64,000 nt of DNA from an uncultured Actinomycetota bacterium (GTDB lineage: Bacteria; Actinomycetota; Actinomycetes; JACCUZ01): contig CAVSCX010000006.1 of the NCBI GenBank assembly GCA_963726615.1, positions 67,343 through 131,342 of the forward strand, given 5' to 3'. The translations under genes and the position numbers were made by a program. This document shows, piece after piece, positions 7,173 to 60,877 of this stretch. Every line of letters starts with the position of its first letter. The first letter of the stretch is position 1. The notes below the pieces were generated by a model, which saw only the letters and a program-made list of their open reading frames with translations, was not told the DNA's origin and did no database searches.

Positions 7173-8378
7173 ATGGGGCTGCAGGAGACCGGAGTGCCCA
7201 TGTCCGCGCCGAGCCGTCCGTACGACGAGTCCGACCCGGTCTTCGCTCTGCACCGGGGCGGCAAGCTGGAGACCGTGTCGACGGTCCCGCTGCGCGACCG
7301 CGACGACCTGTCGCTGGCCTACACGCCGGGGGTCGCCCGGGTGTGCTCCGCGATCGCGGAGGATCCCGACCTCGTGTACGACCTCACCTGGAAGTCGAAC
7401 GTGGTGGCTGTCGTGACCGATGGCAGCGCGGTGCTGGGGCTGGGTGACATCGGCCCGCGGGCAGCGCTGCCGGTCATGGAGGGCAAGGCCGTGCTGTTCA
7501 AGCAGTTCGGCGGCGTCGACGCCGTGCCCATCTGCCTGGACGCCTCCTCGGTCGAGGACATCGTCGACGCGGTGGTCCGGATCGCCCCTGGGTTCGGAGG
7601 CATCAACCTCGAGGACATCAGCGCCCCGCGCTGCTTCGAGATCGAGGAGCGGCTCAAGGGCCTGCTGGACATCCCCGTCTTCCACGACGACCAGCACGGC
7701 ACCGCGGTCGTCGTGCTCGCCGCACTGCGCAACGCCGCGCGGCTGACCGGCCGGACGCTGGGCGACCTGCGTGCCGTCGTGTCCGGCGCCGGAGCGGCGG
7801 GGGTGGCGGTGACGACGATCCTGCGCGAGGCGGGGATCGGGGAGATCGCCGTCACCGACAGGGGCGGGGTCCTGCACGGCGGGCGGGAGGACCTCACGTC
7901 GGTGAAGCGGCACCTTGCCGCGGTGACCAACGGCGCCGGCCGGACCGGCAGCCTCGTCGAGGCACTCTCCGGTGCCGACGTCTTCATCGGGGTGTCCGGC
8001 GGGACGGTGCCGGAGGAGGCGATCTCTGCCCTCGCCGACGACGCGATCGTCTTCGCGCTGGCCAACCCGGAGCCGGAGGTGCACCCCGACATCGCCGCCC
8101 GGCACGCCCGGATCGTGGCCACCGGACGCAGCGACTACCCCAACCAGATCAACAACGTGCTCGCCTTCCCCGGCATCTTCCGCGGTGCGCTCGACGTGCG
8201 AGCGAGTGCGGTGACCGAGGGCATGAAGCTGGCGGCGTCGGAGGCACTGGCAGATGTCGTGTCCGACGAGCTCGCCGAGGACCGGGTCGTGCCGAGCCCC
8301 TTCGACGAGCGGGTCGCCCCGGCGGTGGCGGCGGCAGTGTCCGCGGCCGCCCGGCGGGAAGGCGTCGCCCGGATCTGA
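7173..8378 (+). CDS. NAD(P)-dependent malic enzyme (short form)
   Basis: Strong malic-enzyme motifs (LSLAYTPGVARVC, VVTDGSAVLGLGDIGP, NPEPEV, NNVLAFPGIFRGALD). Confidence 0.85.
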   Translation: MGLQETGVPMSAPSRPYDESDPVFALHRGGKLETVSTVPLRDRDDLSLAYTPGVARVCSAIAEDPDLVYDLTWKSNVVAVVTDGSAVLGLGDIGPRAALPVMEGKAVLFKQFGGVDAVPICLDASSVEDIVDAVVRIAPGFGGINLEDISAPRCFEIEERLKGLLDIPVFHDDQHGTAVVVLAALRNAARLTGRTLGDLRAVVSGAGAAGVAVTTILREAGIGEIAVTDRGGVLHGGREDLTSVKRHLAAVTNGAGRTGSLVEALSGADVFIGVSGGTVPEEAISALADDAIVFALANPEPEVHPDIAARHARIVATGRSDYPNQINNVLAFPGIFRGALDVRASAVTEGMKLAASEALADVVSDELAEDRVVPSPFDERVAPAVAAAVSAAARREGVARI

Positions 8379-8412
8379 TCCCCCGGAGGGACAGGTGACC
8401 CGAGGTCGCCGG

Positions 8413-8541
8413 TCATCCCAGCGGGTGCGGCTGGGTGCGGAGGGTCAGGTGGGCCGGCTCGGGGCGCCGGCTGCGGCCGCGCAGGTCCTCGTGCACGGCG
8501 TCGTCCTGGCGGGTCCCGCGGCCTCGGCGTGGGGTGCGCAT
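8413..8541 (-). CDS. Hypothetical 42-aa arginine-rich small protein
   Basis: ATG at 8541 is preceded by GGAGAC. 38 of 41 codons have G/C in the third position. The conserved PadR-type inverted-repeat element lies about 30 bp upstream. I have no homology assignment for it. Confidence 0.35.
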   Translation of the reverse strand: MRTPRRGRGTRQDDAVHEDLRGRSRRPEPAHLTLRTQPHPLG

Positions 8542-8569
8542 CTCGGTCTCCCTGGTGGTAGTGCAAGGA

Positions 8570-8632
8570 CGCGATGTATCGCGACTGAGAACACGATACA
8601 TCGCGTGTGGCCCATGTCAAGATGTATCGCGA
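8570..8632. promoter_or_regulatory. Candidate PadR-type operator: CGCGATGTATCG-N12-CGATACATCGCG, plus a third partial half-site at 8621-8632
   Basis: 12-bp inverted-repeat arms with a 12-bp spacer. The same architecture, nearly the same sequence, recurs at 15854-15889 next to the DUF4097-PadR operon. Confidence 0.55.
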
Positions 8633-8746
8633 GTCTTTCGCGCCCGGCTGCGCCGGCGTCCCGACAGTGCGTCGTGGTCGCGCACCGGCAGCGACTCGCT
8701 GCCGGTGCCGTTCCCTCCGGCCGAGCCACCGGAAGGCGGCCGCGCG

Positions 8747-10237
8747 TCAGTGCGGCGAGAGCTGGCCGGTCAGGCGCCGGTGCATCTGGCCGCTGACCTC
8801 GGTGAGCCCCAGGATCCGCACGGTCTTGCCGCGCCGGGCGTACTTCGTGGTCACCGCGTCGAGTGCCGCGACGGCCGAGGCGTCCCACACGTGTGAGGCG
8901 GACAGGTCGATGACGACCTGGTCCGGGTCGCCGGCGTAGTCGAACTGCCCGACCAGGTCGTTGCTGGAGGCGAAGAACAGCGCGCCGTGCACCGAGTAGA
9001 TGACCTCACCGCCGTCGGGGTCCAGGACCGAGGTGACCTCGACGAGGTGAGCGACCCGGCGGGCAAAGAGCATCATCGCGGCGAGGGTGCCGGCGAGGAC
9101 GCCGTACGCCAGGTTGTGCGTCGCGACGACGACGCCGACGGTCACGAGCATCACCGAGGTCTCGCTCTTCGGCATCCGCCGCAGGGTCGACGGGGCGACC
9201 GAGTGCCAGTCGAACGTGAGCCCGGCGACCACGATCATGACCGCGACCAGCGCGGCCATCGGGATGGCCGCCACGAGCGGGCCCAGGGCCACGACGAGCA
9301 CGAGGAGGAACACCCCGGCGAGGAAGGTCGACAGCCGGGTCCGGGCGCCGGAGGTCTTCACGTTGATCATCGTCTGGCCGATCATCGCGCAGCCGCCCAT
9401 GCCACCGAAGAAGCCGGTGACGATGTTGGCCACACCCTGGCCCCAGGACTCCCGGGTCTTGGAGGAGTGCGTGTCGGTGATGTCGTCGACGAGCTTCGCG
9501 GTCATCAGCGACTCCATCAGCCCGACCAGGGCAAGCGCCAGCGCGTAGGGGGCGATGATCCGCAGCGTCGCCAGGTCGTACGGCACGTCGGGCAGCCCGA
9601 ACCCGGGCAGCGAGTCGGGCAGCCGCCCCTCGTCCCCGACCGTGGGCACAGCCACGGCGCCCACGCTGGTCAGCAGCGTCAGCAGGACGATGGCGACGAG
9701 CGGCGCCGGAACGACCTTGGTCAGCCGCGGCAGGCCGACGATGAGCCCGAGCGCCACCGCGACGAGCGGGTAGACGACCCACGGCACGTCGACAAGGTGG
9801 GGCACCTGGGCGAGGAAGATGAGGATGGCCAGGGCGTTGACGAAGCCGACCATCACGCTTCGGGGAACGAACCGCATCAGCCGCGCCACACCGAGAACTG
9901 CCAGCAGGACCTGGATCACGCCCCCCAGCACGACCGCGGCGATCAGGTAGTCCAGGCCGTACTGCTTCGCGAGCGGTGCGACGACCAGGGCGATCGCACC
10001 GGTCGCAGCGGAGATCATCGCCTTCCGGCCGCCGGTGAAGGAGATGACCACGGCCATCGTGAACGACGCGAACAGCCCGACCCTGGGGTCGACCCCGGCC
10101 AGGATCGAGAACGAGATCGCCTCGGGGATCAGGGCGAGCGCGACGACGAGGCCGGCGAGAGCCTCGGTGCGGAACACCCTGGGGGAGGCCCAGTCGGGCC
10201 GGGACAGACGGACGCGGACGGGCGCAGGGATCGACAT
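8747..10237 (-). CDS. SulP-family sulfate/anion permease with a C-terminal STAS domain
   Basis: SulP signature regions ([41 protein letters not shown]) and a C-terminal STAS fold. ATG at 10237 (MSIPAPVR...). Confidence 0.85.
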
Positions 10238-10671
10238 GCCGCCGTTTCGGGTCGGGGGCACCGTGGCGGTGCCGTGAGGAGGCCGATGGCGCGAGCGCGC
10301 TGCCGGCGGGGGTGGACGAGGGAGACGCGGACTCGTGGGACGCAAGTTGTCCCTGGGGGAGTCGGCACTTCCGGGCGGCGACTTCACTCCGTCACGACGG
10401 TGCCGCCCGTCCGTCGCCCCTCCACGGTACGGGCACGAGCAGGCCGGCCCGACCAGTACGCGGCCCGAACCGGTGTGACAGCCGTCTCACCCGACGGCGG
10501 GTCAGCCGGTCGCGTCGCCTCCGGGGACCTCGAACCAGAACCGCACCAACAGCACCAGTGACACGAGCAGAAGGCTCGCCCCCACGGGGTCGCGGCCCAC
10601 CCGATCACGCGCCCTGACGGCTGGCGAAAGGCGGGCGACCGGGTCGAACGCGCCTGGGTAGGGTCGCTCGC

Positions 10672-11643
10672 ATGCTCGCCGCCGCCGCCGTACGCACCGA
10701 TGCGAACGACCCGCTCAGCTGTCTCGAGGTGGGGGAGCGCCCCGACCCGCGGCCGCCTGAGGGCTGGGCCACGGTGCGGCTGCGCGCGGCCGCGCTCAAC
10801 CGCCACGACCTGTGGAGCCTGCAGGGGGTCGGCCTGCCCGACGACCGGCTGCCGATGGTTCTCGGCTGCGACGGCGCCGGCGTCGACGAGGACGGTAACG
10901 AGGTCGTCGTGCATGCCGTCGTCGGCGACGCCGACTTCCGCGGCGACGAGACGCTGGACCCGCGGCGCACGCTGCTCTCCGAGAAGTACGACGGCACGCT
11001 GGCCGACGTCGTCGTCGTGCCGCGTCGCAACCTGGTCCCGAAGCCGGCCGGCCTCAGCTTCGAGGAGGCCGCTTGCCTGCCGACCGCGTGGCTCACGGCG
11101 TACCGGATGCTGTTCACCCAGGGCGGGCTTCGACCGGGCCAGACGGTGCTGGTGCAGGGCGCCGGTGGCGGTGTCGCGACGGCGCTGGTGGCGATCGGCC
11201 GCGCGGCCGGCCTGCGGATGTGGGTCACCAGCCGCGACAAGGCGAAGGGCGAGCGGGCCGTGGAGCTCGGAGCCGAGCAGGCCTTCGGGCCCGGCGAGCG
11301 GCTCCCGGAGCGGGTCGACGCCGTGATGGAGACGGTCGGCGAGCCCACCTGGGAGCACAGCCTGAAGTCGCTGGCGCCCGGCGGTGTGGTGGTGGTGTCC
11401 GGCGCGACCGGGGGGCATCGCGCGGTGACCGACCTGCGCCGTGTCTTCTTCCTCCAGCAGCGGATCGTCGGCTCGACGATGGGCACCCGCGACGAGCTCG
11501 TCCGGCTGATCCGTCTCCTGGCCGAGACGGGTGTCCGGCCGGTCGTCGACTCGACGGTTCCGCTCGAGCAGGCAGCAGCTGCCTTCGGTCGGCTGGCCGG
11601 CGGCGACGTGTTCGGGAAGATCGTCCTGACCCGGCCTGCATGA
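10672..11643 (+). CDS. Zinc-type alcohol dehydrogenase / quinone oxidoreductase (MDR superfamily)
   Basis: Rossmann GxGxxG (VLVQGAGGGVATALV) and a typical MDR-family domain layout. Confidence 0.8.
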   Translation: MLAAAAVRTDANDPLSCLEVGERPDPRPPEGWATVRLRAAALNRHDLWSLQGVGLPDDRLPMVLGCDGAGVDEDGNEVVVHAVVGDADFRGDETLDPRRTLLSEKYDGTLADVVVVPRRNLVPKPAGLSFEEAACLPTAWLTAYRMLFTQGGLRPGQTVLVQGAGGGVATALVAIGRAAGLRMWVTSRDKAKGERAVELGAEQAFGPGERLPERVDAVMETVGEPTWEHSLKSLAPGGVVVVSGATGGHRAVTDLRRVFFLQQRIVGSTMGTRDELVRLIRLLAETGVRPVVDSTVPLEQAAAAFGRLAGGDVFGKIVLTRPA

Positions 11644-12722
11644 GGGCGGACACGTCGGCGGGGGAGCGGGACGACGACGTCGCGCTGCCCCGCTGGCGCG
11701 ACCCGGCCTGGCGGGCCGAGGTCGACGCCTGGGTGGGCCACCAGCTCGCGCGCCTCGGTCTCCGGCGGACCGGTGCAGGCACGCAGGACCGCTCCTACCC
11801 GTGGTCGACGGTGATCGAGGTCCAGACCTCGGACGGCTCGGTGTGGTTCAAGGCGAACGCTCTCGGCATGCACCAGGAGGCGGCGCTGTACGAGGTGTTG
11901 ACGCGCCGGGCGCCTGAGCACGTCCTGCAACCCCTCGCGCTCGACGTGGAGCGCGGCTGGCTGCTGCTCCCCGACGGCGGCCTGACGCTCCGGGCGAGCG
12001 AGGGTGCGCGCACCGACCTCGCGGTCTGGGAGCGGATGCTCGTCGAGTACGCCGACCTGCAGCGCAGCATGGAGCCGCATGTGGGCGAGCTCCTCGCGGC
12101 CGGCCTCGTCGACGCGACGCCGGCAGCCCTGCCCGCGATGCGCGACGCGCTGCTCGCCGACCCTCGGCTGCTGCTGCTCGACACCGACAAGGGACTGAGC
12201 TCGGCCGAACGCGACGAGCTTGTCGCCTACGCGCCGGCGTACGCCGCGCAGTGCCGCGACCTGGCCGCGTTCGGCATCCCGGTCACGCTGCAGCACGACG
12301 ACCTGCACGACCACAACGTGTTCGCGCCCGCGTCGCCGGGCGGCAGCCTGCGGGTCTTCGACTGGGGCGACGCCGTGGTCGGGCAGCCGTTCGGGACGTT
12401 GCTCATCAGCCTGAGGTTCGTCGCGATGCTGGCGAACCTCGCCCCCGGAGCCGACGAGCTGCTCCGGCTCCGCGATGCGTACCTCGAGGCCTGGACCGGC
12501 GACTACGACCGCGCGGACCTTGTCGATGCGGCGCGGCTCGCGGTGCGGGTCGACGCCGTGGCGCGCGCGGACTGCTTCCGCCGCGCCGTGCTCGAGTGGG
12601 ACCGCGGCTACCGGACGATCTTCGACGAGGGGGTGCCGAGCTGGCTGCGCGAGCAGCGCGGGCCGACCCCGCTCGACCCCGACCCGGCCCATGTGTGGCC
12701 CGAGCCCCGGCCGGTCACGTGA
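11640..12722 (+). CDS. Phosphotransferase-family protein (APH/choline-kinase-like)
   Basis: Catalytic HDDLHDHNV and DWGDA motifs of the aminoglycoside-phosphotransferase fold. Its ATG overlaps the upstream stop (ATGA). Confidence 0.7.
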   Translation: MRADTSAGERDDDVALPRWRDPAWRAEVDAWVGHQLARLGLRRTGAGTQDRSYPWSTVIEVQTSDGSVWFKANALGMHQEAALYEVLTRRAPEHVLQPLALDVERGWLLLPDGGLTLRASEGARTDLAVWERMLVEYADLQRSMEPHVGELLAAGLVDATPAALPAMRDALLADPRLLLLDTDKGLSSAERDELVAYAPAYAAQCRDLAAFGIPVTLQHDDLHDHNVFAPASPGGSLRVFDWGDAVVGQPFGTLLISLRFVAMLANLAPGADELLRLRDAYLEAWTGDYDRADLVDAARLAVRVDAVARADCFRRAVLEWDRGYRTIFDEGVPSWLREQRGPTPLDPDPAHVWPEPRPVT

Positions 12723-14169
12723 CCCTGACCTTGATGCGCGTGGTCGCGTAGCCCGCCTTGCGGACGACCGCCGGGAACCTGCCTGACTTGAGCTTCGCGG
12801 AGACCTTCACGGCGGCGCGGCCGTGGCCGTTCGTCCTCACGGTCGAGCCGCGGAAGCTGACCTTTGCGCGGGCAACCGGCGATCCTGCGTCGCTGACCCG
12901 GATGCGCACCGTGCCGCGGTCCAGCTTCCTCGGCTTGGCCACCACCTGCAGGCCGGGCAGCACCTGGAGGGAGTACAGCGACGGCTCGGCGGCTCCACCG
13001 ACCTGAGCGCTGGAGACGATGTCGAGCGGCCCCCGCGCCGCGTCGGTGGTCGTGGCCCGCAGCTGTGACGTGGGCCCACCTGGCTGGGGGACCGTCCGGA
13101 CGGCCCCCCACCGGCTCACGGCGGGGTTGCTCCGCGTCGCGTGCAGCACTCGGTCGCCCAGGGTGTGCCAGGACAACCAGAGCCGGCCCCCGCCCGACGC
13201 GGACAGCGTGACGAGGTCCGCCGACCCACCTGCGGGCACGTCGAGCCAGCTGCCGCTGCCGGCCTGCCAGAGCCGGATCGTCGAGCTGGTCGGGTATCCG
13301 GGCAGGTACGCCACCCAGATGCCGCCGCCGGCCCGGGCGGCGAGCGCCACGGGTTGTCCCGGTCCGGTGCTGTTGACCGAGCCCGTGACCGAGCCAGGTG
13401 CCGTGAGCGCCGGGCCCGCCGATCGTGGCCACACCCGCTGCACCCTGGTGCCGACCTGGCTCGCCTCGCCGTTCGGCGAGTGCCAGGCTGCCCAGACCTC
13501 GCCGGTGGCGGTGTCGCGTGCGAGCGCCGCGTAGTAGCTCCCGCCCGCGGCGGCGGTGAAGTCGCCGGTGTCGGCCGGCGACCCGGTCCGGAACCCGCGG
13601 TGCAGCACGAGGGCCGGCGTGAAGCCGCTGAAGGCCACGAACGGTTCGCCACCGGCATCGATCGCGTCGATGTTGCCGGAGTTCCCCGCGGCGGCGCTCT
13701 CGGTGAGTGACCCGGGCGCGAGCGCCCAGCTCGACCCGTCACTGCTCCTGGCAGAGACCATCGGCCCGACGTACGGGTCTCCCGGGGCGAAGCTGCGGAT
13801 GCCCGCGAACGCGGCGACCTGGTCGGTGCCGCTGACGAAGAGCTTGGGGTCCTCGACGACGGCGAGCCAGCCTTCGACGACGGTCGCCACCGGGCCGACC
13901 GGCCGGGCCCGCGAGTCGAGCGGGCGTACCCGCACCGAGCTGGTCGAACCGTCGCTCTGGGACCAGATCACCTGCAGCCGGTCGCCCACCCGCAAGGTGT
14001 CCGGCTGGGTGATCGCCGGCACCGGGCCAGTCACCGTCGACCAGGGCGCCACCGAGGTCGCGGTCGCCGCGCGACTCGTTGCCCCGTGGGTCCCGGCGGA
14101 GGCGACGCCGCTCATGGCCAGCCCGACAGCAGCCCCGGTCCCGATCATCACTGCCGACGTCCGCCGCAC
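12715..14169 (-). CDS. Secreted BNR/Asp-box repeat protein with a C-terminal carboxypeptidase-regulatory-like domain
   Basis: The signal peptide (RRTSAVMIGTGAAVGLAMSGVASA) follows a GTG at 14169 with a GGAGG RBS. An Asp-box motif (SSDGSSWA) and Ser/Gly-rich beta-repeats are present. Confidence 0.55.
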   Translation of the reverse strand: MRRTSAVMIGTGAAVGLAMSGVASAGTHGATSRAATATSVAPWSTVTGPVPAITQPDTLRVGDRLQVIWSQSDGSTSSVRVRPLDSRARPVGPVATVVEGWLAVVEDPKLFVSGTDQVAAFAGIRSFAPGDPYVGPMVSARSSDGSSWALAPGSLTESAAAGNSGNIDAIDAGGEPFVAFSGFTPALVLHRGFRTGSPADTGDFTAAAGGSYYAALARDTATGEVWAAWHSPNGEASQVGTRVQRVWPRSAGPALTAPGSVTGSVNSTGPGQPVALAARAGGGIWVAYLPGYPTSSTIRLWQAGSGSWLDVPAGGSADLVTLSASGGGRLWLSWHTLGDRVLHATRSNPAVSRWGAVRTVPQPGGPTSQLRATTTDAARGPLDIVSSAQVGGAAEPSLYSLQVLPGLQVVAKPRKLDRGTVRIRVSDAGSPVARAKVSFRGSTVRTNGHGRAAVKVSAKLKSGRFPAVVRKAGYATTRIKVRVT

Positions 14170-14373
14170 GGGGACCTCCCCTGGCCGTCCCCGTGTGTCG
14201 CGACGGTAGCCGGGAGCAGGGCTGCCGTGAAGGCCCAGCCACCGGCTGTGTCCGTGGGACTTCCGAGGGTGTGGGACATCCGTGCGATGTCGCGACAAGC
14301 GCCTCGTCCCTGAGTCGTGGGTCGTCCGGTCCCCGGTGCCCGCCGTGCTCCGCGGGGTGATCCGCGGAGGGGG

Positions 14374-14973
14374 CTAGCGCTCGAACAGCCGCCGGCCCTC
14401 GTCGAGGGTGCGCTGCAGCAGCTCGCGCAGCGCCGCGACATCGGCCTTGGTGTGCACGCCGTGCCTGGTGACGGTGCGCAGCTCGGAGCGGAACCAGTCG
14501 ATGGTGCGCTCCAGGTCGGCCCCGAACGGGTCGGTGCTCGGCTTGCCGGCCTGCCGCTCCTCGCGGGCCATGGCGCGACCCTGCCGTCGGACGTCCTTCG
14601 CTGCGGCCTTGAGCTCGGAACGCAGGTCCCGCACCGACCCCTTCACCTCGCTGCGGATCTCGGTCGCGAGGTCGCGCACGGAGCCGGCGATCTCCTGCTC
14701 GAGGTCCTCCAGGTCACCCTGCCGCTCCTGCAGCTCGGCCCGACCGGCGTCGGTGATCCGGTAGACCTTCCGGCCCTCCTCGACGTGGTGGGTCACCAGC
14801 CCCTCGGACTCCAGCCGGGCCAGCCGCGGGTAGACGGTCCCCGCGCTGGGGGAGTAGAGGCCCATGAACCGGTCCTCGAGCTCGCGGATCACGTCGTAGC
14901 CGTGGCGCGGGCTCTCGTCCAGCAGCTTGAGCAGGTACAGCCGCAGCCGGCCGTGCCCGAAGACCGGGCTCAT
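14374..14973 (-). CDS. PadR-family transcriptional regulator
   Basis: N-terminal PadR winged HTH (LYLLKLLDESPRHGYDVIRELEDRF...GTVYPRLARLESEGLV) with a coiled-coil C-terminal extension. It lies downstream of DUF4097 in the same operon. Confidence 0.85.
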   Translation of the reverse strand: MSPVFGHGRLRLYLLKLLDESPRHGYDVIRELEDRFMGLYSPSAGTVYPRLARLESEGLVTHHVEEGRKVYRITDAGRAELQERQGDLEDLEQEIAGSVRDLATEIRSEVKGSVRDLRSELKAAAKDVRRQGRAMAREERQAGKPSTDPFGADLERTIDWFRSELRTVTRHGVHTKADVAALRELLQRTLDEGRRLFER

Positions 14974-15022: not shown

Positions 15023-15838
15023 TCATGCCGGCTCCGTCGGCCGGCGGAGCAGGGTGACGTCGCCGGAGACCGTCTTCGCGCTGAGCCGTCCGTCGCCGCT
15101 CCCTACGGCGCCGGACATGGTGGCCTTGCCGGGCTTGCGGTCGTGCCGGACGCCGTCGAAGGCGCTGTCCAGCGAGCCGCTCATCGTCTTCACGTCGACG
15201 CTCAGCCCGACGCTCTCGGGCATCCGCAGGGTGAGGTCTCCCGAGACGCTGGACACGTCGATGCGTCCGCCGGCCAGCAGGTCGAGGTCGAGGGTCAGGT
15301 CGCCGGACACCGTCTCGGCCTTCACGTGGTCGCTGCGTCCGTCGACCACGGTGAGCTCGCCGGAGACCGTGGTGAACTTCAGGGTGCCGGCGAGCTGCCG
15401 GGTCTCCAGGTCACCGGACACGGTCTGCGCGGTGATGTCGGACCGGACCCCGTCGAGGATCACGTCGCCCGACACCGACTTCACGGCCGTACGCGCCGCC
15501 TCGATGCCCGAGACGACGGCGTCGGCGGAGACCACGCCGAGCTCGACCGGGCAGGTGTGCGGGACCGAGACGGAGACCGTCGCCTCGGCCCGCCGGTTGC
15601 CGACCCAGTCGAACAGCCCGCCCCAGGTGAGCCGCTCGTGCCGGATCGTGAGGGTGCCGTCCTCCAGGGTCACGGTGAGCGGACCGTCGAGGTCGCTGAC
15701 CTCGACCTGGGCGGCGCCGGACTCGGCGTCCTCGGTGCGCCCGACCACGTCGATGCTGCCGGACACCATCCGGACCTCCAGGCGCCGGACGCCCTCGAGG
15801 TCGAGGGACTGGGGCTGCTCTATCCGCCACTGCGGCAT
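15023..15838 (-). CDS. DUF4097 (LiaG/putative-adhesin-like beta-repeat) protein
   Basis: Repeated VSGDL/TVSGEL beta-strand motifs. ATG at 15838 is preceded by GGAGAG, with the PadR-type operator immediately upstream. Confidence 0.7.
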   Translation of the reverse strand: MPQWRIEQPQSLDLEGVRRLEVRMVSGSIDVVGRTEDAESGAAQVEVSDLDGPLTVTLEDGTLTIRHERLTWGGLFDWVGNRRAEATVSVSVPHTCPVELGVVSADAVVSGIEAARTAVKSVSGDVILDGVRSDITAQTVSGDLETRQLAGTLKFTTVSGELTVVDGRSDHVKAETVSGDLTLDLDLLAGGRIDVSSVSGDLTLRMPESVGLSVDVKTMSGSLDSAFDGVRHDRKPGKATMSGAVGSGDGRLSAKTVSGDVTLLRRPTEPA

Positions 15839-15853
15839 GATGTGCTCTCCATT

Positions 15854-15889
15854 CACGATGTATCGCGTCTACAAACACGATACATCGTG
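15854..15889. promoter_or_regulatory. Candidate PadR-type operator: CACGATGTATCG-N12-CGATACATCGTG (perfect inverted repeat)
   Basis: A perfect 12-bp inverted repeat with a 12-bp spacer, ending 15 nt upstream of the DUF4097 ATG. It is near-identical to the element at 8570-8605. Confidence 0.6.
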
Positions 15890-16036
15890 AGTGGTCGCTG
15901 TCAACCCGCCGTCCGCCTCGACCCGGTGATCCACAGCGGATCCGTCGATGATCCACAGCGGATCGGTAGGGACTTTTCCAGCGGATCCACTGTGGATCAC
16001 CGAAACCCCGGGGTGGGGGATTCTGCGCGACGGGCG

Positions 16037-16216
16037 TCAGTCGTCCTCGGTGTCGTCGAGGCGCGCCAGCCACGTGGCCAGCCGCTCGACCGGCACCTCG
16101 AAGTCCGGGTTGTCGTCGACGAACTGCTGGAACCGGGCGGCCAGCCAGGCCAGCGACACGCTCTCCTCGCCCCGCCGGGCCTCGAGCTCCTCGATCCCGC
16201 GGTCGGTGAAGTACAC
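16037..16216 (-). CDS. Small acidic conserved hypothetical protein (59 aa) immediately downstream of kgd
   Basis: GTG at 16216 with a stop at 16037. The translation (VYFTDRGIEELEARRGEESVSLAWLAARFQQFVDDNPDFEVPVERLATWLARLDDTEDD) is protein-like. It is not in the ORF track because it lacks an ATG. Confidence 0.4.
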   Translation of the reverse strand: MYFTDRGIEELEARRGEESVSLAWLAARFQQFVDDNPDFEVPVERLATWLARLDDTEDD

Positions 16217-16223
16217 GCCGGGC

Positions 16224-19200
16224 CTAGAGGGTGAAGGCCTGCTCGACCAGCCCGCGCTGCTCGAGGTCGTGGACCCGGTGCGACCCGGCCGCGGGAGACG
16301 CCGACGGCGGCCGGGCCACGCAGGACAGGCCGCGGCCGCCCAGGGCGGCCGGCAGGTTGAGCGCCATGAACGGCCAGCTGCCCATGTTGGCCGGCTCCTC
16401 CTGCACCCAGACGAGCTGTGCGTCGGGGTACGGCGACACGGCCTCGGCGATCTCGGGACCCGCCAGTGGCGCGAGCCGCTCGACCCGGACGATCGCGACC
16501 TGCTCCCCGCCCGAGCCCGCCCGCTTGGCCCGCTCGGCGAGCAGGTCGTAGTAGACCTTGCCCGCGCACAGGAGGACCCGCCGCACGCCGCCGGGATCGA
16601 TGCCCCCCTCGGTCTCGGGGATGACCGGCCGGAACGTGCCCGAGGTGAAGTCCTCCACCGCGGACGCGGCGGCCTTCAGCCGCAGCATCGACTTCGGGGT
16701 GAAGACGATCAGCGGGCGGCGCGGCTCGTGGTAGGCGTGCCAGCGCAGCAGGTGGAAGTAGGACGCCGGGGTCGAGGGGTACGCCACGGTCATGTTGTCC
16801 TCGGCGCACATCGTGAGGAAGCGCTCGATCCGCCCCGACGAGTGGTCCGGGCCCTGGCCCTCGTAGCCGTGCGGCAGCAGGAGGACCACCGACGAGCGCT
16901 GGTTCCACTTCTGCTCGGACGCCGCGATGAACTCGTCGATGATCGTCTGGGCGCCGTTGAGGAAGTCGCCGAACTGCGCCTCCCACAGCACCAGCGCGTC
17001 CGGCCGGGCGACGGAGTAGCCGTACTCGAAGCCCATGGCGGCGAACTCCGACAGCAGCGAGTCGTAGATCCAGAAGCGGGCCTGCCCCTCGTCCAGGTGC
17101 GCCAGTGGCACCCACTCGCGGCCGGTGACCTTGTCGGTGAGCACGGCATGCCGCTGCACGAAGGTGCCGCGCCGGGAGTCCTGGCCCGCCAGCCTGATCG
17201 GCTTGCCCTCGAGCAGCAGCGAGCCGAAGGCGAACAGCTCGCCCATGGCCCAGTCGATCGCACCCTCGGAGGCCATCGCCGCGCGCTTCTGCAGCAGGGG
17301 CATCAGCTTGGGGTGAACGGTGAAGCCGTCGGGCAGCGCCACGAACGCGTCGGCGATCCGCTTGATCACCTCGAGCTCGACGGCCGTCTGGCGCGTGCCC
17401 GCGGCGACAGTCGCGGACTGCTCGGCCGGCGGCTCGATGCCCTCGCCCGTTCCCTCGTCCTGCGACGACGAGACGGCGTCGCGGGTCTCGGTGAACACGC
17501 GCTCGAGCTGGCCCTGGTAGTCGCGCAGCGCCTGCTCCGCCTCCTCGACGGAGATGTCTCCACGACCGATGAGGGACTCGGTGTAGATCTTGCGGACCGA
17601 CCGCTTCCCCTCGATCAGGTTGTACATCAACGGCTGCGTCATCGACGGGTCGTCACCCTCGTTGTGGCCGCGGCGGCGGTAGCAGACCATGTCGATGACG
17701 ACGTCCTTCTTGAACTCCTGGCGGTACTCGAAGGCCAGCTTGGCGACCCGGACGCACGCCTCCGGGTCGTCGCCGTTGACGTGGAAGATGGGTGCTTGGA
17801 TCATCCGGGCGACATCGGTGCAGTAGAACGACGACCGTGACGCGGCCGGCGACGTGGTGAAGCCGACTTGGTTGTTGACGATCACGTGGATCGTGCCGCC
17901 GGTGCGGTAGCCGCGCAGCTGGGAGAGGTTCAGGGTCTCGGCGACCACGCCCTGGCCCGCGAAAGCGGCATCGCCGTGCAGCAGCACCGGGAGGACCGTG
18001 AAGCCCTGCTCGCCCTTGTTGATCCGGTCCTGCTTCGCCCGGGTGATGCCCTCGAGCACCGGGTTGACCGCCTCGAGGTGCGACGGGTTCGCAGCCAGGT
18101 AGACCTTGCACTCGCTGCCGTCCGGTGCCTTGAACGATCCCTCGGTGCCGAGGTGGTACTTCACGTCGCCCGAGCCCTGCACCGACCGCGGGTCCTGGTT
18201 GCCCTCGAACTCGCGGAAGATCTGGCCGTAGGACTTGCCGGCCAGGTTGGTCAGCACGTTGAGGCGGCCGCGGTGCGGCATGCCGATGGTGACCTCGTCG
18301 AGGCCGCTCTCGGCCGCCGAGGTCATGACCTCGTCGAGCAGCGGGATGACCGCCTCGCCGCCCTCGAGCGAGAACCGCTTCTGCCCGACGTACTTGGTCT
18401 GCAGGAAGGTCTCGAACGCCTCGGCGGCGTTGAGCCGGCGCAGGATGGTCAGCTGGTCCTCGCGCGAGGGCTTGGCGTAGCCGACCTCGACCCGCTCCTG
18501 GATCCAGTGGCGTTCCTCCGGGTCCTGGATGTGCATGTACTCGATGCCGATGCGGCGGCAGTACGACTCCCGCAGAACGCCCAGGATCTTGCGTAGCGAC
18601 GCCATCGTCTTGCCGCCGAAGCCACCGGTGGCGAACTCGCGGTCGAGGTCCCAGAGGGTCAAGCCGTGCGTGACGACGTCGAGGTCGGGGTGGCTGCGCT
18701 GGCGGAACTCGAGCGGATCGGTGTCAGCCATCAGGTGGCCGCGCACCCGGTAGGCGTGGATGAGCTCCTGCACTCGGGCCTGCTTGGCGACATCGTCCTC
18801 GTGCGAGGCGGAGATGTCGCTCACCCAGCGGATCGGCTCGTACGGGATCCGCAGCGAGCGGAACACCTCGTCGTAGAAGCCCTGCTCACCCAGCAGCAGG
18901 CCGTGCACGCGCCTGAGGAAGTCGCCGGACTGGGCGCCCTGGATGATGCGGTGGTCGTACGTGGAGGTCAGCGTCATGGTCTTGCTGACCGCCAGCCGGG
19001 CCAGGGTCTCCGGCGCCGCGCCCTGGTACTCGGCGGGGTACTCCATCGCGCCGACACCGATGATGGTGCCCTGGCCCGCCATCAGGCGGGGCACCGAGTG
19101 GACGGTGCCGATGGTGCCGGGGTTCGTGAGGGTGATCGTCGTGCCGGCGAAGTCGTCGGCTGTGAGCTTGTTGGCGCGTGCTCGCCGCACGATGTCCTCG

Positions 19201-20036
19201 TACGCCGACCAGAAGCCGGCGAAGTCCATCGCCTCTGCGCCCTTCACCGAGGGGACCAGGAGCGTCCGGCTGCCGTCCGGCTTCTGGATGTCGATGGCAA
19301 GGCCGAAGTTCACGTGCTGGTGCGAGACGATCGCGGGCTTCCCGTCGACCTCGGTGAAGCCGCTGTTCATCTCCGGCATCTCGGCCAGTGCCTTGACGAC
19401 AGCGAAGCCGATCAGGTGGGTGAAGGAGACCTTCCCACCGCGGTTGCGCTGCAGAGCGTTGTTGATGACGGTGCGGTTGTCGATCAGCAGCTTGGCCGGC
19501 ACCGCACGGACGCTTGTCGCCGTCGGCACCGCCAGGCTGGCGTTCATGTTGGACACGACCCGGGCGGCCGGCCCCTTGAGGGTGCGCACGTCGTCGCCGT
19601 CGTCGGCCGGTGCCGGCGCCGCGGTGCCGGCCGTGCCGGCCGTGGCGGTGCCCGCGGGCTTCGCCTCGACGGGCGGGCGCACCGGTGCGGCGGCCGGCTT
19701 CTGCGCGACCTGGTCGGCGGTGGCCGTGCCGTCGGCAACCGGGGCCGTAGTCGGCCGGGCGGGTGTCGCGCGCTCCGGTGCAGGGGCGGGGGCGGCCGCC
19801 TCGGCGGCGGGCGCCGCAACTGAGCTGCTGCCGTTGCCGGTGGCGGCACCGGTGTCGGCGGGCTTGTAGTCCTTGAAGAAGTCCCACCAGGCGGCGTCGA
19901 CGCTGTTCTTGTCGGCGAGGTACTGCTGGTAGAGCTCGTCGACAAGCCACTCGTTCGGGCCGAAGCCTCCGGGGGTCTTGCTGACGGTGCTGCCGGAGCT
20001 GCGGGTCTGCTCCTGCCCGGAGGCTGACTGCGACAC
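16224..20036 (-). CDS. kgd: Multifunctional 2-oxoglutarate dehydrogenase E1 component with an N-terminal E2-like succinyltransferase domain (Kgd/OdhA type)
   Basis: 1270 aa. It has an N-terminal Ala/Pro-rich linker and acyltransferase domain, and TPP-dependent E1 motifs (GTEGS..., [12 protein letters not shown], transketolase-like C-terminus). The start is a GTG. Confidence 0.9.
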
Positions 20037-60803: not shown

Positions 60804-60877
60804 GGTGCCCCCGGCAGGATTCGAACCTGCGCCACCGCCTCCGGAGGGCGGTGCTCTATCCCCTGAGCTACGGGGGC
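60804..60877 (-). tRNA. tRNA-Arg (anticodon CCG)
   Basis: Cloverleaf: acceptor GCCCCCG/CGGGGGC, D-arm GCTCAGGGGATAGAGC, anticodon stem CCGCC/GGCGG with loop CTCCGGA, T-arm GCAGGTTCGAATCCTGC, discriminator A. Confidence 0.85.

Follow-up and report, generated by a model that had tools for sequence, protein, structure and literature searches.

Short palindromic boxes in two promoters of an uncultured actinobacterium as putative operators of a co-encoded PadR regulator

The DNA analysed here, a stretch of 64 kb from an uncultured Actinomycetota bacterium (hereafter the window), contains two promoters 7 kb apart that both carry matching short palindromic boxes. One of them (site B) drives an operon encoding a Toastrack (DUF4097) protein and a PadR-family regulator, and the other (site A) precedes a gene for a 42-aa basic protein. 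Boxes of the same type occupy fixed promoter positions and accompany padR operons across lineages, and the small open reading frame (ORF) is coding sequence. We consider it probable (about 0.78) that the boxes are bound by the co-encoded PadR, which would repress its own operon and a small regulon through promoter occlusion. The genes and sites are listed below.

7173-8378, plus strand: malic-enzyme gene
8413-8541, minus strand: gene for the 42-aa basic protein MRTPRRGRGTRQDDAVHEDLRGRSRRPEPAHLTLRTQPHPLG; RBS GGGAGA at 8552->8547
8570-8583, minus strand: site A box 1, minus strand CGCGATACATCGCG; spans about +4 to +17, assuming a transcription start some 7 nt past the -10 hexamer
8592-8605, minus strand: site A box 2, minus strand CGCGATGTATCGTG; holds the -10 hexamer TATCGT (8598->8593)
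8615-8620, minus strand: -35 hexamer TTGACA of the small-ORF promoter, from the promoter scan
8618-8631, minus strand: site A box 3, minus strand CGCGATACATCTTG; joined to the -35 hexamer, which it overlaps
8747-10387, minus strand: SulP permease gene
10672-11643, plus strand: zinc alcohol dehydrogenase (ADH) gene, from GC3 and Pfam
about 11700-12722, plus strand: APH-like kinase gene, from GC3 and Pfam
12715-14298, minus strand: 527-aa ORF directly downstream of padR, coding frame by GC3, signal-peptide-like N-terminus
14374-14973, minus strand: PadR-family regulator (Pfam PF03551), 199 aa, encoded second in the operon; candidate binder of the boxes
15023-15838, minus strand: Toastrack (DUF4097) protein (Pfam PF13349), 271 aa, first gene of the operon; RBS GGAGAG at 15850->15845
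15854-15867, minus strand: site B box 1, minus strand CGCGATACATCGTG; predicted at about +4 to +17; ends 15 nt before the ATG
15876-15889, minus strand: site B box 2, minus strand CACGATGTATCGTG; holds the -10 hexamer TATCGT (15882->15877)
15899-15904, minus strand: -35 hexamer TTGACA of the Toastrack-padR operon promoter, from the promoter scan
16037-16216, minus strand: DUF6104 gene
16224-20036, minus strand: kgd/odhA-type 2-oxoglutarate dehydrogenase gene

In the mechanism that we propose, each box of about 14 bp would be the operator for one dimer of PadR (the product of 14973-14374). At site B, PadR bound to the -10 box and to the box at about +4 to +17 would cover the Toastrack-padR promoter, and at site A an additional PadR would sit on the box fused to the -35 hexamer of the small-protein gene. 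Since the boxes are built into the two promoters, bound PadR would block RNA polymerase. PadR is thereby predicted to exert negative autoregulation on its operon and tighter repression on the gene for the 42-aa basic protein; in close relatives, it may also repress a DrrAB-like ABC-2 exporter operon. On a signal, PadR would leave the DNA and all of these genes would be switched on; either the cytoplasmic Toastrack protein of the same operon or the long C-terminal helical region of PadR may transmit that signal. Occlusion of a promoter by an autoregulated repressor is a classical and ordinary mechanism, and would represent a familiar type of regulation in an uncultured soil actinobacterium.

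The sequence was read directly at both sites. Site A consists of CGCGATGTATCG-N12-CGATACATCGCG at 8570-8605 and site B of CACGATGTATCG-N12-CGATACATCGTG at 15854-15889, with equal arm and spacer lengths and 11 of 12 arm bases identical. The duplicated element described in the initial annotation is thus present in the form claimed, and its 32-bp core, CGATGTATCG-N12-CGATACATCG, occurs exactly twice in the window (8572-8603 and 15856-15887) when up to 3 mismatches are allowed, with 0.00 occurrences expected from shuffles. The 9-mer GATGTATCG was found five times (0.12 expected), exclusively at sites A and B. One of these occurrences is an extra copy at site A (8621-8629). It had been described as a third half-site at 8621-8632; the extra copy is real, but it belongs to a full third box fused to the -35 hexamer. 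Counting 14-bp boxes that match at least 10 of 12 specified positions gave six in the window (0.86 expected), of which five are in the two promoters; the remaining one, a 10/12 match, lies inside a gene. Pairs of boxes 20-30 bp apart occur within the 64 kb only at the two promoters.

A promoter scan detected TTGACA-16-TATCGT on the minus strand at both sites, a 10/12 match to the sigma-70 consensus. It was the sole such match in the region of each site, with 0.0 in shuffles. Judged from these hexamers, each promoter is a strong one of the sigma-70 type with the boxes built in. At both sites the -10 hexamer is inside the promoter-proximal arm, while the downstream arm, about 4-17 nt past the expected start of transcription, leaves 15-28 nt to the start codon. 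At site A, the third box abuts and overlaps the -35 hexamer (CGCGATACATC-TTGACA). As the initial annotation stated, both elements are 5' of an RBS and start codon on the minus strand (GGGAGA and the ATG at 8541; GGAGAG and the ATG at 15838). In five aligned close relatives, the stretch from TTGAC to ATG is almost invariant and the DNA just upstream of it is variable. The promoter of padR's own operon has boxes overlapping both its -10 hexamer and its predicted +4 to +17 region, in silico the arrangement expected of an autoregulated operon.

This layout also bears on whether the repeat could act in RNA. It might form a hairpin of the 5' leader that attenuates transcription or masks the RBS, or it might terminate the upstream gene. 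The arms could pair as a 12-bp stem, 15-30 nt before the RBS. However, given the conserved -35 and -10 hexamers, the upstream arm falls within the -10 and transcription is expected to begin between the two arms; the third box on the -35 hexamer would be left without a role at the RNA level. Moreover, neither site has a T-run, a terminator call or a match in Rfam 15. Because the boxes are self-complementary, the complementarity of the arms is not evidence that they pair. We therefore regard action in RNA as highly improbable, and we retain the reading of the boxes as DNA operators.

The occurrence of the boxes in other organisms was assayed by scanning one genome per prokaryotic species (596 Gb) with the pattern GATGTATCG-N12-CGATACATC. 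The scan returned 27 loci, for about 9 chance matches expected by our own arithmetic (18 specified bases in 596 Gb). Fifteen of these loci (numbered with an L below) belong to Actinomycetota, and 14 of the 15 showed the context of the boxes; the exception, in Arthrobacter (L015), looks like a chance match. The 14 loci have a common extended consensus, cGCGATGTATCG...CGATACATCGcG, and the nearest genomes carrying the element are uncultured Actinomycetota MAGs. Three Desulfobulbaceae MAGs also matched the pattern (L001 7675-7704, L009 919-948 and L023 3714-3743); their matches are part of a longer perfect hairpin, GATGTATCGGGGA-N4-TCCCCGATACATC, an unrelated element common to that family.

The loci were sorted by context using tblastn with the proteins of the window, and Pfam. 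In seven of them the Toastrack-PadR operon is directly downstream of the boxes (L002, L006, L012, L019, L010, L020 and L003). The PadR of L002 is 91% identical to that of the window, and L006 ends inside the Toastrack gene; in the other five, PadR is only 48% identical and Toastrack 31-37%. Three further loci (L004, L007 and L024) have the small ORF beside malic enzyme downstream of the boxes. In L016 (1304-1339) and L008 (6587-6622), a DrrA-like ABC ATPase and an ABC-2 permease are encoded about 100 nt downstream of two boxes, which are associated with a TTGACG/TATCGT promoter just after a threonine-dehydratase-like gene. These two loci come from the same MAGs as L024 and L002. The DrrAB-like ABC-2 exporter, encoded outside this window, is thus a likely third member of the regulon in close relatives.

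Scanning metagenomes with the PadR alignment added 80 loci with a PadR 53-98% identical to that of the window. When the window, genome and metagenome loci were combined and those with the Toastrack start and upstream DNA present were kept, 52 Toastrack(DUF4097)-PadR promoters from Actinomycetota were obtained (PadR identity 48-98%). All have two or three boxes at fixed promoter positions. In most of them, a box begins 15 nt after the first base of TTGAC and its right half supplies the -10 hexamer, TATC[G/T]T, and the second box is close upstream of the RBS. Eight Toastrack promoters have a third box, joined to the -35 hexamer and 26-27 bp upstream of the -10 box (L037, L039, L042, L066, L081, L090, L098 and L107). 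The same third box is found 26 bp upstream of the -10 box in the promoters at the small-ORF position (L004, L007, L024, L109, L110, L111 and L040). In three other metagenome loci (L091 343-382, L102 3764-3803 and L094 764-777), the boxes precede padR by 50-240 nt and no Toastrack gene was detected in the interval, pointing to variant layouts of the operon.

Boxes were also counted in 583 kb of fetched DNA together with the window, requiring at least 10 of 12 positions with AT..AT fixed. Nearly all of the 123 boxes found are in the three types of promoter. This count addresses the idea that the element is a dispersed REP- or MITE-like repeat with no regulatory role, which its palindromic sequence and its presence in more than one copy might recall. 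The initial annotation had itself pointed to many copies at unrelated non-promoter positions as the sign of such a repeat. Instead, the copies lie in promoters of three types of gene, at positions fixed with respect to the -35, -10 and RBS, and they show neither flanking duplications nor shared flanks. Only one isolated 10/12 match lies inside a gene in the 64-kb window, where box pairs are confined to the two promoters, and the 583 kb of related DNA agrees. The probability of a REP-like repeat is therefore close to negligible.

The collected promoters also indicate what the operator unit is. It is clearly a quasi-palindrome of about 14 bp, CGCGAT[A/G][T/C]ATCG[C/T]G, judging by its sequence, with each 12-bp "arm" constituting a complete box; CGCGATATATCGCG, a perfect palindrome, occurs in other lineages. 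Across the 52 orthologous promoters, the start-to-start distance from the -10 box to the downstream box is 22, 23, 24, 25, 26, 27 or 28 bp, with modes at 22 and 26. Because this distance varies, the element is not one 36-bp inverted repeat. In the clade of the window, one box has GT as its central dinucleotide and the other has AC, and for that reason the pair resembles one long inverted repeat. The conserved bases of the spacer are those that complete the -10 hexamer, namely a T after ATCG in the window clade (TATCGT) and TACGAT in Micromonosporaceae-like MAGs.

The initial annotation had described a single 36-bp inverted repeat, in which the 12-bp arms would be the half-sites of one PadR oligomer and 8621-8632 an extra half-site. 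In the window and its nearest relatives, the arms are indeed perfectly reverse-complementary and the 12-bp spacer is fixed. Yet each arm is itself palindromic, and the spacer bases that are conserved only complete the -10 hexamer. Furthermore, the recognition helices of a PadR dimer are about 34 A apart (PMC5050560), so that one wHTH dimer reading both arms as half-sites is hard to reconcile with a variable separation of 22-28 bp. This description is therefore very unlikely to be correct. Independent boxes, with half-sites about 10 bp apart, fit PadR dimers with that helix spacing, and the element would be better described as two or three tandem 14-bp boxes over the promoter.

The candidate binder belongs to the PadR family (Pfam PF03551, 82.4 bits for a cut-off of 27, residues 14-83). 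The gene pair of DUF4097 followed by PadR that had been proposed was confirmed by Pfam (15838-15023 and 14973-14374). Even orthologues with 48% overall identity have a nearly unchanged wHTH, and the recognition-helix region, PS[AP]GT[IV]YPRL, is conserved across lineages in parallel with the box. Y26 (HGY), Y48 (GTVYPRL) and K69 (GRKVY) are invariant in the alignment of orthologues. We take them to correspond to the DNA-binding triad of Bacillus subtilis PadR, Tyr20/Tyr42/Lys67 (PMC5728393), as judged from the motifs and not from a direct alignment to 5x11.

The structural model of PadR (mean pLDDT 87) consists of the wHTH, a 58-residue helix (85-142) and two more helices. The top Foldseek matches were Rv3488, BCE3449 and LmrR, aligned over the wHTH only, and the best of them are subfamily-2 proteins. 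Subfamily-1 members have 19-22 kDa and a separate C-terminal domain of two long helices, and subfamily-2 members have 11-13 kDa and one appended helix. With its long helix, the C-terminal region of the present PadR is unlike the solved structures of either subfamily. No Pfam domain was found in residues 81-199, and reading the sequence by eye revealed no obvious hydrophobic, membrane-spanning stretch.

Is PadR the protein that binds the boxes? Its assignment as the binder, which is based on co-occurrence, is the most likely one. As the initial annotation noted, PadR is the sole regulator nearby: it is the only DNA-binding protein encoded in the conserved neighbourhood (kgd, DUF6104, Toastrack, PadR, APH-like, ADH and malic enzyme). 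The boxes could instead be operators of a different regulator encoded elsewhere, padR being merely one target. The tie between PadR and the DNA by co-occurrence leaves room for this, as does the dissimilarity of the box to published PadR motifs. The consensus PadR operator is ATGT-N8(-10)-ACAT (PMC5050560), and ATGT-N6..12-ACAT is absent from both strands of 8540-8660 and 15830-15925. On the other hand, the boxes track the padR operon even into lineages where PadR identity drops to 48%, the neighbourhood conserves no other DNA-binding gene, and PadR repressors commonly autoregulate, as the norm of the family (PMC6624303, PMC5050560). A regulator encoded elsewhere is thus quite unlikely in our opinion.

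Binding by PadR remains the preferred reading, with two points to be considered. Box variants (CGCGAT or CGAGAT) did not covary with the residues of the wHTH, since lineages with the same wHTH use both, and hence they provide no evidence of a specificity swap. In addition, the boxes incorporate the -10 and -35 hexamers, and promoter constraint could account for some of the conservation of the boxes; the downstream box, however, is no promoter element. The proposal of an operator shared within one autoregulated PadR regulon has strong support from comparative genomics (the 52 promoters, all small-ORF homologues examined and the near absence of boxes elsewhere), but not in its 36-bp anatomy.

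The first protein of the operon is a member of the Toastrack family (PF13349, 70.3 bits for a cut-off of 22.9, residues 27-263 of 271). No hydrophobic segment was apparent when its sequence was read by eye, and no solved structure was found for it by sequence. A resemblance to LiaF/PspC-type envelope-stress modules had been suggested. Against NCBIfam, the protein scored 64 bits for LiaG (cut-off 285) and 30 for LiaX (cut-off 350), far below both thresholds. Neither the Toastrack protein, nor the C-terminal region of PadR (up to an E-value of 10), nor the neighbouring ORFs matched the HAAS families of Pfam (DUF1700/DUF1129/DUF1048). Likewise, none of the Lia/Psp families (LiaI, PspC, LiaRS etc.) and no two-component genes were detected among the ORFs tested between 7.1 and 20 kb. 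Given these absences and the low LiaG and LiaX scores, the analogy does not extend beyond the shared Toastrack domain: the module has no such partners nearby and no apparent membrane stretch.

The small ORF downstream of site A is convergent with the malic-enzyme gene (7173-8378, plus strand), with 34 nt between the stop codons. Homologues are present in L004, L007 and L024. A word-indexed search retrieved 14 clusters of the family, and an exhaustive HMMER search of 1.84 billion representatives (50% identity) retrieved 18. All members have 37-53 aa, with a middle part that varies in length in frame between an N-terminal motif, MRxALRGRGTRHDD, and a C-terminal one, EPxHLTLRTQPHPFG. Differences between homologues are mostly at third codon positions, and GC3 (0.88) is highest in the frame of the small ORF. 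No Pfam or NCBIfam family or name is attached to the protein. From these sequence comparisons, the 42-aa ORF is a credible gene of a narrow family of small proteins.

In every small-ORF locus examined, the three-box promoter is upstream and the ORF converges on a malic-enzyme gene, their stop codons being separated by 19-55 nt; the gene on the other side of the ORF varies. The gap between the small ORF and malic enzyme contains no terminator-like structure and folds no better than shuffled sequences (z -0.2 to -1.2). At 8378-8413 of the window and at the equivalent places in L109, L110 and L111, the convergent transcripts may overlap in antisense. In L040 (PadR 66% identical), a three-box promoter at the equivalent spot beside malic enzyme (2651-2902) drives an ORF of 54 aa. 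This ORF was considered as a homologue of the small protein and rejected, the hhalign probability being 0.3% and MAFFT giving only scattered identities. L036 and L037 lack a small-ORF insert, their ADH and malic-enzyme genes being direct neighbours.

Since L040 keeps the promoter with an unrelated ORF, transcription towards malic enzyme may be no less important than the peptide. The three-box promoter and the small protein might then form a dedicated output arm of the Toastrack-PadR module aimed at the malic-enzyme gene, acting by antisense or convergent transcription and/or through a new small effector (e.g. a ligand of Toastrack or PadR that closes a feedback loop). We consider this extension doubtful.

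Several characterized or predicted systems resemble the present one. In Listeria monocytogenes, LltR (Lmo0599), from the lltR-lmo0600-lmo0601 operon, is likewise a PadR-type repressor of its own DUF4097/Toastrack operon, and its loss also raises the expression of an ABC transporter, which is reminiscent of the exporter target in the relatives studied here (PMC6624303). LltR is, however, a short PadR from a Firmicute, with padR first in the operon, a DUF1700/HAAS membrane protein encoded with it and an undefined operator (PMC6624303). Here, Toastrack comes first, there is no HAAS gene, PadR has a helical tail of about 115 residues and neither protein has an obvious membrane segment. Toastrack and a PadR-like wHTH also share one neighbourhood in the HAAS-PadR-like wHTH/Toastrack systems of Ravi et al. 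2024 (PMC11237479), where comparative genomics led to the proposal that Toastrack is an intracellular platform coupled to a transcription factor; neither operators nor target genes were defined in that work. The HAAS domain that defines this dyad was not found here, nor was a PspC or LiaI-LiaF-TM partner nearby.

Regarding the operator, the closest parallel is cdPadR1 of Clostridioides difficile, whose own promoter also contains two distinct palindromes. The first covers the -35/-10 region, the second precedes the ORF by about 25 bp, and the motif is also present at other promoters (PMC5050560). Its motif, TACT-N11/12-AGTA, has an AT-rich core and about 200 genomic matches (PMC5050560), in contrast to the GC-flanked 14-bp palindrome and apparently very small target set described here. 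LmrR/lmrCD and B. subtilis PadR/padC similarly involve a dimeric wHTH repressor that binds promoter palindromes, is released by an inducer and controls a detoxification or ABC-exporter target (PMC5050560, PMC5728393). The present system differs from both in having no ATGT-N8/10-ACAT, in offering no inferable ligand pocket and in the long C-terminal helix, which is unlike the solved subfamilies. In the literature on PadR with Toastrack, DUF4097, Actinobacteria or Streptomyces, no description of the present operator was found, and a literature search with the box sequence returned only primer coincidences.

Toastrack-PadR gene pairs are widespread and have been proposed, from genome context only, as an alternative to two-component signalling; more than 7,000 homologues of the present PadR were found at E below 1e-20. 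What is new here is a predicted operator, a candidate target set and a small-protein family for this widespread, unstudied actinobacterial module. The predicted operator is a 14-bp box in two or three copies over the -35, -10 and +1 region, a layout well suited to reporter and EMSA work. The minimal candidate regulon would comprise the operon itself, the basic protein of 37-53 aa and, in relatives, the ABC-2 exporter. In addition, an unannotated ORF of 42 codons becomes a credible gene with a candidate regulator.

Other features of the region were also analyzed. A 695-aa ORF on the minus strand (10605-12692) was rejected as an operon member: it is spurious, a wrong-frame product of the high G+C content, since GC3 and Pfam place the real genes (ADH and APH-like) on the plus strand. 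The 527-aa ORF directly downstream of padR (12715-14298) has no Pfam or NCBIfam match. As L002 and L108 lack it at this position, it was discarded as a conserved member of the operon and regarded as a lineage-specific insertion, which might be co-transcribed with the Toastrack-padR operon.

Between the stop codon of DUF6104 and the -35 hexamer of the Toastrack promoter (15924-16003), the window contains three copies of a unit of about 21 bp, CGGTGATCCACAGCGGATCCG, two of them direct and 22 bp apart and one inverted. TGATCCACA occurs three times in the window, against 0.22 expected. L002 and L006 also have the unit, which is absent from L108 (identical PadR) and L073. The unit resembles, at 8 of 9 positions, what we take to be the DnaA box, TTATCCACA. 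The unit could be the site of another regulator or a small insertion. Finally, the sole Rfam match in the window is a tRNA gene on the minus strand at 60806-60877.
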